A stretch of DNA of 64,000 nt. It comes from an uncultured Bacteroidales bacterium. GTDB lineage: Bacteria; Bacteroidota; Bacteroidia; Bacteroidales; WCHB1-69. The position numbers are program-made. Shown here piece by piece: positions 18,401 through 21,400 of this stretch (the first letter of the stretch is position 1; each line of letters opens with the position of its first letter). The stretch is from the NCBI GenBank assembly GCA_900315705.1, contig ONAB01000002.1, positions 124,399 to 188,398 of the forward strand, given 5' to 3'.

Positions 18401-21400
18401 GGATTTGGTGGCCCTCTTCGGTCTCCTTGGTCACGGTGCAGAGCTTGCCGTTGACGGAGAGGTCGGTGACGTAGGTCACTTGGGGCAGGTCGAGGTGCTG
18501 GGCCAGGGAGACGGGCACCTGGGCGGTGTCGCCGTCGATAGCCTGACGGCCGCAGATAATGAGGTCGTAGTCGAGGGTCTTGAGTGCGCCGGCGAGAGCG
18601 TAGGAGGTGGCCAGCGTGTCGGCGCCGGCAAAGCGGCGGTCGCTGAGGATGATGGCGCGGTCGGCACCCATCGCGTAAGCCTCGCGGCAGATGGCGTCGG
18701 CTTGCGGCGGACCCATCGTGATGACGGTCACGTGCGCGCCGAGCTGGTCTTTCAAACGGAGGGCCATCTCAAGGCCGCCCTTGTCGTCAGGATTCATAAT
18801 GGAGGGAACACCGTCGCGGATCAGCGTGCCCGTTTCCGGGTTGATTTTGATCACGTTCGTGTTCGGGACTTGTTTTATGCAAACTATGATTTTCATATTG
18901 TAAAATTTCTTGGTTTATTTGAACAACTTGCCGGCGATGACCATACGCTGCACTTCGGAGGTGCCTTCGTAGATCTCGGTGATCTTGGCATCGCGCATCA
19001 TTCTTTCGATTTCATACTCGCGGGTGTAGCCGTAGCCGCCGTGGAACTGGAGGCACTTGGTGGTCACCTCCATCGCGGTTTCAGCGGCGAAGAGTTTGGC
19101 CATTGCCGCATCCACGGAATACGGGAGGTGCATATCCTTCTTGTAGGCTGCCTGACGCACCAGCAGGCGGGCGGCCTGCACGCGGGTCTCGAGGTTGGCC
19201 ATCTGGAACTGCGTGTTCTGGAAGGCGGCGATGGCCTTGCCGAACTGCTTGCGCTCCTTGGTGTATTTGACGGTCACATCCATAGCACCCTGGGCGATGC
19301 CGAGGGCCTGGGAGGCGATGCCGATACGGCCGCCGTCGAGCGTCATCATAGCGATTTTGAAGCCCTTGCCGAGCTCGCCCAGAAGGTTTGCTTTGGGGAT
19401 GCGGCAGTTTTCAAAAATCAGCTCGCAGGTGGCGGAGCCGCGGATACCCAGTTTCTTCTCCTTCTTGCCGATGGAGAATCCCGGGGTGTCCTTCTCCACG
19501 ATGAAGGCGCTGATGCCCTTCGTGCCCTTCGACTTGTCGGTCATCGCCATAATCACATAGACGTGGGCATAGCCGGCGTTGGTGATGAAAATCTTGCTGC
19601 CGTTGAGCACCCACTCCTCGCCGTCAAGGACAGCGGTGGTCTGCTGCATAGCGGCATCGGTGCCGGCGTTGGGCTCAGTCAGACCGAAAGCGCCGATCCA
19701 CTCACCGGAGGCAAGTTTGGGCAGGTATTTCTGTTTCTGTTCCTCCGTGCCGAACTCCAGAATCGGGTTCATACAGAGGGAAGTATGGGCAGACACGATC
19801 ACGCCGGTGGTGGCGCACACGCGGGAGAGCTCCTCCACGGCCATAATGTACATCTGGTTGGTGCCACCCTGGCCGCCGTATTCCACGGGGATGGGGATAC
19901 CCATAATGCCGATCTTGGCCATCTTCTCCACGGTTTCCATCGGGAAGCGCTCCTGTTCATCGACCTCAGCCGCCAACGGTTTGACCTCGTTCTCGGCGAA
20001 TTCGCGAATCATCTGCAAGAAAAGTTCTTCTCTTTTGTTTAAGCTAAAATCCATTGTTGTGTGTTTATTAGTTTACTGTTTATTGTAGGTAGTGAGCAGT
20101 GAACAATAAATAGTGAGCAGTGAACAGTGAACTGTAAAATAGCTGATGAGGCAAGTGTTACCTATTTATTTCTGATCACTGATCACTCATCACTGATCAC
20201 CTAAAAATATCATCACTGATCACTCATCACTGATCACTTAAAACTCATCACTAATCAAGTTGCATCGGTTTGAGATCCGGGGAGATGATGAGGTTGGCCT
20301 CGGTGGCGGCCTTCACGTCGTCAACGGTGAATTCGGGGTTGATTTCGGTGAGGACCAGTCCCTCCTTGGTGACCTTGATGACGCCCATCTCGGTGACGAT
20401 GAGGCTGACAGCGTTCTTGGCGGTCAGCGGCAGGTTGCAGGAGTGCAGGATCTTGGGGTTGCCCTTCTGGGTGTGTTCCATCGCCACGATGACGGTCTTG
20501 GCCTGCATCAGGTCCATAGCGCCGCCCATACCGGCCACCAGTTTGCCAGGGACCATCCAGTTGGCGATGTCGCCGTTCTCGGCCACCTGCATAGCGCCGA
20601 GGATGGTCTTATCAACGTGACCGCCTCTGACCATACAGAAGGAGTCGGCGGAGCTGAAGGAGACGGCGCCGGGCTGTGCGGTGATGAAGCCGCCGCCGGA
20701 GTTGACGAGGTTCGGGTCTTCCTGGCCTTCGGCGGGCGTGGGACCCATACCCAACATACCGTTCTCGGTTTGCAGAATCACGTGCACGTCACTGGGCAGA
20801 TAGTTCGGCACCATCGTCGGCAGACCGATACCCAAGTTGACAACGTCGCCGTCTTTCAATTCCTTAGCGACTCTTTTAGCAATGGTTTCTCTGATTTGAG
20901 CTTTATCCATAGTCATTATATTTTAAAAAGTTATACTTAATTCTAGTACACCCGATAAGGGCGGGCAAAGATACAAAAAAAAGAGAAAAGCGAAAATGAT
21001 TTTTTATTGCAACATCACCCATTTCAATTTCGTTGTTTAATGTAACATTTTCACCTTTTCTTGCATCTATCCATAAAAAACAATAAAGATATGAAAAAAA
21101 CGCTACTCTCCTGTCTTTTTCTATGTATTGCCGGCCTGTTGACGGCACAAACGGTCGTCATCACCGTCGGCACAGAAACGTCCAACGGCTATTATGCCCC
21201 CTTCAATTCCTATTATCATCACTCCTGGAACCAGTGCATCTACAACGCATCGGAAATCGGCGTTTCCGGTGATATTACCTCCATCGCCTGGCATTGCGCG
21301 AACAACCAAAGTTCCCTGCAATGCAACAACATCACCATCTATATGGGAACCATCGCTGACACCGCCCACACCCTCAGCACGGACTGGCTGCCGATGGACT

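Follow-up and report, generated by a model that had tools for sequence, protein, structure and literature searches.

The ctfB-bcd junction and its spacer

The window, that is, the whole stretch of DNA that was analyzed, comprises 64,000 nt from an uncultured Bacteroidales bacterium (C22:124399-188398 of a 3.0-Mb genome in 47 contigs, with 52% G+C), and our subject is the spacer within it that separates a ctfB-like gene from the acyl-CoA dehydrogenase gene bcd and that is built in large part from arrays of 7-nt repeats. All features of this locus are read on the minus strand. The upstream cistron encodes a ctfB-like CoA-transferase subunit B (20251..20916; Pfam PF01144, CoA_trans, E = 2.7e-42); the downstream cistron, bcd (18915..20054), carries three acyl-CoA dehydrogenase domains (PF00441, PF02771, and PF02770) and is followed by etfB (18117-18896) and then etfA (17094-18101), which were recognized by the etf Pfam domains PF01012 / PF00766. 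The ctfB stop codon is TAG at 20253-20251 and the bcd start codon is ATG at 20054-20052; the sequence and the gene calls both bear out the earlier note, which had placed a gap of 196 nt between them (20055-20250). The ctfB-like gene (20251-21090 with its upstream region, which holds its own TATCTTTG box) has no adjoining subunit-A gene, and the genome has just one more CoA_trans (PF01144) gene, on a different contig (C21:115367-115993).

The Bacteroidetes -7 promoter consensus is TAnnTTTG. A pattern search placed a match to it, TATCTTTG, at 20966..20973, approximately 50 nt upstream of the ctfB ATG, and found no such box in the ctfB-bcd spacer. Likewise, a terminator scan of 20055-20250 returned no site. 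Canonical terminators with a GC stem and a T-run are present elsewhere in the genome, and the first canonical terminator-like hairpin and T-run downstream of the spacer, at 15170..15190, is the likely end of the operon. Since it holds neither a promoter box nor a terminator, the spacer is probably transcribed as an intercistronic segment of one ctfB-bcd-etfBA mRNA. At gathering thresholds, an Rfam search of the whole window returned one tRNA only, with no match in the spacer.

In the direction of transcription, the spacer falls into four parts. The stop-side (5') arm, at 20172..20253, was delimited by Tandem Repeats Finder (TRF), by a direct-repeat family (D1), and from the sequence itself; it consists of about nine AGTGAnn units (GTGATCA/GTGATGA), which form two blocks spaced 37 nt apart, and TRF reported it as a period-7 array (12 copies, 20172-20257) and also as a period-37 repeat of 2.3 copies. 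The first of its units overlaps the ctfB stop codon (TAG|TGA TGA), and on the transcript the arm is G-rich and C-poor. It is followed by a unique central segment of 39 nt (20133..20171), defined by BLAST against the whole genome and by the minimum-free-energy structures, which forms the predicted loop region and contains a small local hairpin (GGUAAC...). The start-side (3') arm, at 20091..20132, was identified by TRF and by the inverted pairs; it comprises five nnTCACT units (GTTCACT/GCTCACT) and one degenerate unit (ATTTATT), is reported by TRF as AGTGAAC x6 on the plus strand, and is C-rich and G-poor on the transcript, complementary to the stop-side arm. The nnTCACT array stops 36 nt short of the bcd ATG, and the remaining 36 nt (20055..20090) form an A-rich, G-poor bcd leader that is single-stranded in the predicted fold and that is conserved in an alignment with the nearest species, L001. 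A BLAST search with the spacer found no second copy of the center or the leader in the genome; the array parts alone recur.

Three in-frame stop codons close ctfB (TAG TGA TGA; 20245-20253), the second and third of which belong to the first repeat units. Five GATC sites, spaced 7 to 14 nt apart, lie within about 80 nt of the stop-side arm (20172-20250).

A repeat finder confirmed that the two halves of the spacer are inverse complementary, as had been proposed from the sequence: it returned eight inverted pairs (I1-I8) of 23 to 29 nt that are 72 to 80% complementary in several registers. The accompanying suggestion that the spacer was designed as exactly 28 heptamers is an arithmetic coincidence. 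Heptamer units account for only about 110 of the 196 nt, the remainder being the 39-nt center, the 36-nt leader, and interruptions of 6 to 8 nt, and the stop-side blocks are out of phase because they are spaced 37 nt apart. Nor is length modulo 7 a property of the orthologous spacers (34 to 251 nt), since 4 of 25 are multiples of 7, compared with 3.6 expected.

For the fold tests, the minus-strand RNA was compared with 200 shuffled sequences and scored as a z-score of folding energy. The spacer with the stop codon (199 nt) gave a z-score of -2.68, with 2 of the 200 shuffles folding as well, and the hairpin part (166 nt) gave a z-score of -3.46, which no shuffle equaled. The predicted stem begins at the G of the UAG stop codon and pairs the outer stop-side block with both start-side blocks through helices of 5 to 6 bp, separated by single mismatches approximately every 7 nt; the last 33 nt or so upstream of the AUG are unpaired.

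Heptamer arrays across the genome and in relatives

These arrays belong to a large intergenic class. Across the whole genome, TRF (score of at least 40) found 283 arrays of period 7, against 4 and 45 for periods 6 and 8, respectively. The majority of the period-7 arrays (200 of 283) lie mostly outside long open reading frames, and 24 of 283 fall within genes as called with a codon-usage model. Per kilobase, convergent spacers contained 1.75 arrays, tandem spacers 1.16, and divergent spacers 0.27, and 108 of 246 stop-facing array ends lie no more than 10 nt from the stop codon. Relative to the nearest gene boundary, 148 arrays have the polarity of the majority of their word family and 18 have the contrary one, and on the strand that points away from the gene, G exceeds C in 167 arrays compared with 51. 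Both arms of the ctfB-bcd spacer obey this rule. The GTGAnnn word accounts for 26 arrays at about 20 intergenic loci; arrays with GTGA on the plus strand adjoin a gene to their left, and TCAC arrays adjoin a gene to their right. Given such a polarity rule, the same word on both sides of a spacer automatically yields inverse-complementary halves.

The vocabulary of words is species specific: AAATCGY x3 has 85 matches in this genome and none in 15 of 17 congeners. GTGAnnn x4 arrays were found in most congeners, with about 500 overlapping pattern matches in one of them (G018). Words seem to have been amplified in bursts within single species. AAATCGC/AAATCGT is the commonest word of this genome. 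Many arrays have a period of 14 or 21 (94 of period 21), in which two or three word variants alternate, which points to the duplication of multi-unit blocks; the 45 period-8 arrays are nearly all intergenic. A separate idea, that the polarity reflects stop codons in all three frames, was considered by eye for the ten commonest words and did not discriminate, with a stop codon in the outward direction in 7 of 10 and in the inward direction in 6 of 10.

At least three GTGAnnC inverted pairs occur in this genome, and their loops are unrelated. In addition to the ctfB-bcd copy, one pair lies in the rpsD-rpoA spacer of the ribosomal alpha operon (C18:108380-108490), with 4 + 4 units, and one lies downstream of a resistance-nodulation-division (RND) pump gene (C31:4620-4732). 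Both of these copies begin with TAG|TGA, a junction that is also read in L001. As judged from this distribution, the element is not tailored to ctfB or bcd.

The rpsD-rpoA junction provides the broadest comparison. In 14 of 14 congeneric genomes with an rpsD match, the spacer is 65 to 124 nt long and contains a hairpin, with sense z-scores of -1.8 to -7.9 (median, -6.1; -2 or lower in 13 of 14), and the stem starts within the stop codon or no more than 4 nt past it in 12 of 14. The words from which the stem is built differ between lineages, namely, GTGAnnA, GGTTTAA/TTTATGG, the 8-mer GGTTTAGN, GGTTAAAC, and TAGCCAT. In 12 genomes from other families of the order, the same spacer is 8 to 48 nt long and lacks arrays. 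The remaining alpha-operon junctions of the present genome measure 35, 41, and 5 nt.

The closest public relatives of Bcd come from metagenome-assembled genomes of uncultured Bacteroidales from the rumen and the horse gut. Orthologous spacers devoid of the inverted arrangement would, according to the earlier note, have counted against a stem-loop; instead, many of the relatives keep inverted pairs at ctfB-bcd, in quite different words. The pairs are of GTGAnnn in the present genome, L001, and G018; of GGCAAAA/TTGCCTG in L012, L082, G002, and G009; of GAGACTT/AGTCTTA in G013; of a GGGGTAAAT-type word of about 9 nt in L004, L005, and L081; and of TTTAGAG in L006 and L007. Other lineages have either a nonarray hairpin or an unstructured spacer of 34 to 63 nt. 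Three of the relatives' spacers (L081, L082, and L085) were contributed by a metagenome scan with CtfB, in which the nearest match was only 83% identical, and hence no within-species series was available.

Spacer length changes quickly. In L001, whose Bcd is 99% identical, the spacer is 81 nt shorter; relative to it, the stop-side arm of the present spacer is longer by 51 nt and its start-side arm by 28 nt, and the unit counts are about 9 + 5 here and 4 + 2 in L001. These changes fit replication slippage together with block duplication. Copy number varies on both sides in the GGCAAAA and GGGGTAAAT lineages too, which hints, from few comparisons, that the two arms covary in copy number.

Whether arms pair better with their own partner than with others was assessed by duplex stability. 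Within this genome, the own arms of the ctfB-bcd spacer outpaired 98.7% of polarity-preserving cross-spacer combinations (percentile, 0.013), in a test that is confounded by the small species-specific vocabulary. When 32 spacers from both loci were compared across species, with cross pairs that preserved polarity and included homologous spacers, the own-arm duplex had about double the stability of the median cross pair (mean percentile, 0.16; 0.05 or lower in 41%). A comparison of left and right halves, with the reversed right half as a control, gave a mixed outcome, the split at the midpoint being crude. In G009 and G002, the words at rpsD-rpoA differ from those at ctfB-bcd, and the arms match within each locus. 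From these two-word genomes and the 32-spacer comparison, it follows that the arms of a spacer are coupled, and in the spacers compared here the inverted arrangement is retained while the word is replaced.

The proposed intercistronic hairpin and its alternatives

On balance, we read the ctfB-bcd spacer as an intercistronic heptamer-array hairpin of the short tandemly repeated repetitive (STRR) or long simple-sequence-repeat (LSSR) kind, one that would most likely act by uncoupling the two cistrons. It can be envisioned that replication slippage and block duplication build and resize the arms, which would pair within the polycistronic RNA to give a stem with regular mismatches and with the stop codon at its base. 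By analogy with repetitive extragenic palindromic (REP) and cyanobacterial STRR hairpins, the likeliest effect would be a structural uncoupling of the cistrons. The stem might block 3' exonucleases and so protect the upstream message, or it might insulate the downstream gene, which lacks a Shine-Dalgarno sequence, by keeping its A-rich, G-poor leader single stranded. The fixed polarity of the arrays would arise from two constraints, a stop-codon-rich 5' arm that tends to be free of C and a G-poor 3' arm.

Several results weigh against this reading. The long imperfect stem-loop of the earlier note stands insofar as an arm-to-arm stem is predicted and beats shuffled sequences for the spacer alone; it does not stand when coding sequence is included, since the fold of 20040-20260, with 10 to 15 nt of coding flank per side, is no better than shuffles (z-score of -1.59; 13 of 200). 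Among the array-free tandem spacers of 90 to 230 nt in this genome, 36% also reach a z-score of -2 or lower, compared with 62% of the tandem spacers with arrays in both halves, and the stability of the hairpin is therefore unexceptional. In these folding models, the hairpin is real and its strength is ordinary. The antisense strand of the spacer folds about equally well, so that an RNA-level role is inseparable from a DNA-level role. RNAalifold, when applied to seven same-word rpsD-rpoA spacers, found near-invariant pairs and one compensatory pair and was therefore uninformative. The hairpin would appear to be dispensable at ctfB-bcd, because several relatives have their 34- to 63-nt spacers without it. 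Finally, among spacers with arrays on both sides, the genome-wide preference of arms for their own partner is weak (mean percentile of 0.40 against cross-spacer pairs), and inverted same-word pairs are not enriched among adjacent arrays (13 of 83, compared with a null expectation of 21%).

A bolder version of the hairpin reading, which we consider quite doubtful, holds that a self-complementary simple-sequence hairpin whose arms evolve in concert provides a stem tuned by slippage, which would serve as a genus-wide, evolvable uncoupling "rheostat," even at rpsD-rpoA. Concerted evolution of the arms could proceed through selection for pairing or through template switching between the arms, and the setting would be a host that initiates translation without Shine-Dalgarno pairing.

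The foremost alternative is that the hairpin is a neutral by-product. Slippage arrays would then accumulate wherever they are tolerated, compositional limits would fix their orientation, and a same-word pair would mimic a designed hairpin; the limits in question would be a G-poor leader before starts without a Shine-Dalgarno sequence and stop-rich, C-poor words after stops. We regard this explanation as unlikely. In its favor, the polarity rule is general across the genome, array-free leaders are already G-poor, arm complementarity within spacers is not enriched over cross-spacer pairs genome-wide, the z-score of the ctfB-bcd spacer is moderate and like that of many ordinary spacers, some relatives lack the hairpin, and the spacer lengths of the two nearest species differ by 81 nt. 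However, array-free trailers have more C than G, the opposite of the arrays that follow stop codons, which argues that composition alone fails to explain the stop-side polarity. Furthermore, the arms match locus by locus even where two loci of one genome differ in word, across the 32 spacers the arms pair far more strongly with their own partner than in polarity-preserving cross pairs, and the rpsD-rpoA hairpin is kept in all 14 of the congeners despite replacement of its word.

A DNA-level element, such as a cruciform, a site for a nucleoid or insulator protein, or a palindrome spread by a transposase in the manner of REP/RAYT (REP-associated tyrosine transposase) or miniature inverted-repeat transposable elements (MITEs), is very unlikely. 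The amplification of a single word in one species (AAATCGY x3) looks more like dispersal than independent slippage, the polarity holds symmetrically for genes on either strand, the sense and antisense folding energies are similar, and the genome encodes five Y1 transposases (PF01797) of about 150 to 160 amino acids (C6:17057-17832, C35:2628-3011, C2:40253-40726, C20:23559-24008, and C34:3018-3257). The loci, however, share arrays only, with no common flank, center, terminal repeat, or target duplication, and the transposase genes are bordered not by heptamer arrays but by other GC-rich repeats with units of 18 to 35 nt. Stop-codon anchoring and the avoidance of divergent spacers, which contain only promoters, fit the 3' ends of transcripts better than they fit a DNA-level element. 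The recurrence in the genome of the arrays alone, together with the unrelated repeats at the PF01797 genes, also led us to reject an assignment to RAYT-associated REP sequences or bacterial interspersed mosaic elements (BIMEs). A MITE of the Correia or ERIC (enterobacterial repetitive intergenic consensus) type was rejected because there is no other copy of the center or the leader and because the three GTGAnnC pairs have loops that bear no relation to one another.

Least credible of all is a transcription attenuator or partial terminator that reduces read-through from ctfB into bcd-etfBA: a stem-loop does directly follow the stop codon, and the alpha-operon hairpin coincides exactly with the ribosomal-protein/rpoA junction, at which expression has to be unequal (neighboring junctions, 5 to 41 nt), but the AU-rich stem has a mismatch about every 7 nt, it is followed by CCUACAAUAAAC and not by a U-run, the terminator scan found no site in the spacer while canonical ones exist elsewhere, and strong termination would silence bcd, which has no promoter box of its own. 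The classical attenuator envisaged in the earlier note is accordingly unlikely, given the lack of a U-tract and of a terminator-like site, and the spacer was also rejected as a Rho-independent terminator for want of a GC-rich stem with a U-run.

If the heptamer-array hairpin does act on RNA, then in these uncultured Bacteroidales of the rumen fast-evolving tandem repeats supply stem-loops that set expression ratios within operons, among them a butyrate-pathway operon and the ribosomal alpha operon. Heptamer repeats, familiar for decades from cyanobacteria and other bacteria but with no agreed role, would thereby gain a function. Their gene-anchored polarity, in which the 5' arm on the stop codon is poor in C and the 3' arm that merges into the leader is poor in G, would be accounted for as well. 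If the hairpin is functionless, the locus still illustrates cleanly how spacers are shaped by slippage and by limits on composition, and it warns that repeat-rich spacers can break metagenome assemblies and annotation.

Known repeat families and minor observations

The kind of element described here is already known, and its occurrence in another phylum is moderately new. What the present comparisons of sequence add is its genus-wide persistence, the replacement of words with matched arms, and its presence at rpsD-rpoA.

Heptamer arrays near gene ends have been reported in cyanobacteria (STRR sequences), Xanthomonas, Beggiatoaceae, and a few Bacteroidetes (PMC4679880, PMC4692102). The closest parallel is the hupS-hupL spacer of filamentous cyanobacteria; as summarized in PMC2670836, it contains in four cyanobacteria 7-bp STRR repeats able to form a hairpin, for which a role in transcript stability or translational coupling has been proposed. 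As in that description, the ctfB-bcd spacer has 7-bp tandem units between two genes, is capable of forming a hairpin, and draws on a genome-wide set of intergenic heptamers; its two inverted arrays can pair (72 to 80% complementary; z-scores of -2.68 and -3.46). Unlike the hupS-hupL spacer, it is found in a Bacteroidales host, has AGTGAnn words and a stem that starts in the stop codon, and shares an architecture that is kept at two operon junctions across the genus while the words are replaced. Membership in the STRR family in the strict sense, which calls for the cyanobacterial consensus words in a heterocystous cyanobacterium, was rejected, the host being a member of the Bacteroidales and the units being AGTGAnn.

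Rehm et al. (2015; PMC4692102) described G-rich heptamers in Xanthomonas (GGGAATC) and Nostoc PCC 7120 (GGGGAYT) that, depending on whether they follow a stop or precede a start, occupy the coding or the noncoding strand, respectively, with some overlapping stop codons. The arrays reported here are similarly abundant in intergenic regions, vary in copy number, lie near the 5'-neighboring open reading frame regardless of its orientation, and follow the same polarity rule (PMC4692102). Whereas the Xanthomonas and Nostoc units form G-quadruplexes and favor four copies, the present units are AT-rich, have isolated G residues, and are incapable of forming quadruplexes; paired inverted arrays were outside the subject of that study (PMC4692102).

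Heptanucleotide LSSRs of prokaryotes were treated by Mrazek et al. (2007), as summarized in PMC4679880, and TAACTGA repeats, including those of five Bacteroidetes, were treated by MacGregor (2015; PMC4679880). The likenesses are that period 7 dominates among intergenic tandem repeats, that slippage is proposed as the origin, that the arrays lie beside start and stop codons and differ between close relatives, and that they also occur in ribosomal-protein operons (PMC4679880). The TAACTGA arrays are reported as direct repeats with no predicted structure, apart from one inverted case, whereas the arms of the present spacer are complementary (PMC4679880). The features of heptameric LSSR/STRR-like arrays are all found here, namely, at least three 7-nt copies, an excess of period 7, a noncoding location, gene-anchored polarity, and variation in copy number and word.

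The stem of the ctfB-bcd hairpin is made of tandem repeats, and the loci that carry such stems share only a 7-nt word. In this respect it differs from the REP/BIME and ERIC/Correia-type repeats of Proteobacteria, which are conserved sequences of 30 to 150 nt that are copied by or derived from transposases. As imperfect palindromes in polycistronic transcripts, those repeats form RNA hairpins that modulate mRNA decay and the relative expression of cistrons.

A CRP-like operator (TGTGA...TCACA) and a cluster of GATC sites were considered as identities for the repeats, from the sequence only, and were rejected; the same arrays adjoin unrelated genes at about 20 loci.

Among the Y1 transposase genes, the C6 copy has on its two sides tandem repeats that are inverse complementary and consist of GC-rich units of 18 to 22 nt (CATACGGGAGTATGG... 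/ CCATACTCCCGTA...). It looks like a RAYT gene with its own REP-like clusters, which are unrelated to the heptamer arrays.

Elsewhere in the window, a GGTGAAC x7.7 array (8444-8497) and a GATCACT-type x5 array (10572-10615) belong to the same word family as the ctfB-bcd arrays. They are 2 kb apart and inverted, and they bracket an AT-rich toxin cassette; each adjoins the flanking housekeeping gene, as expected from the polarity rule.

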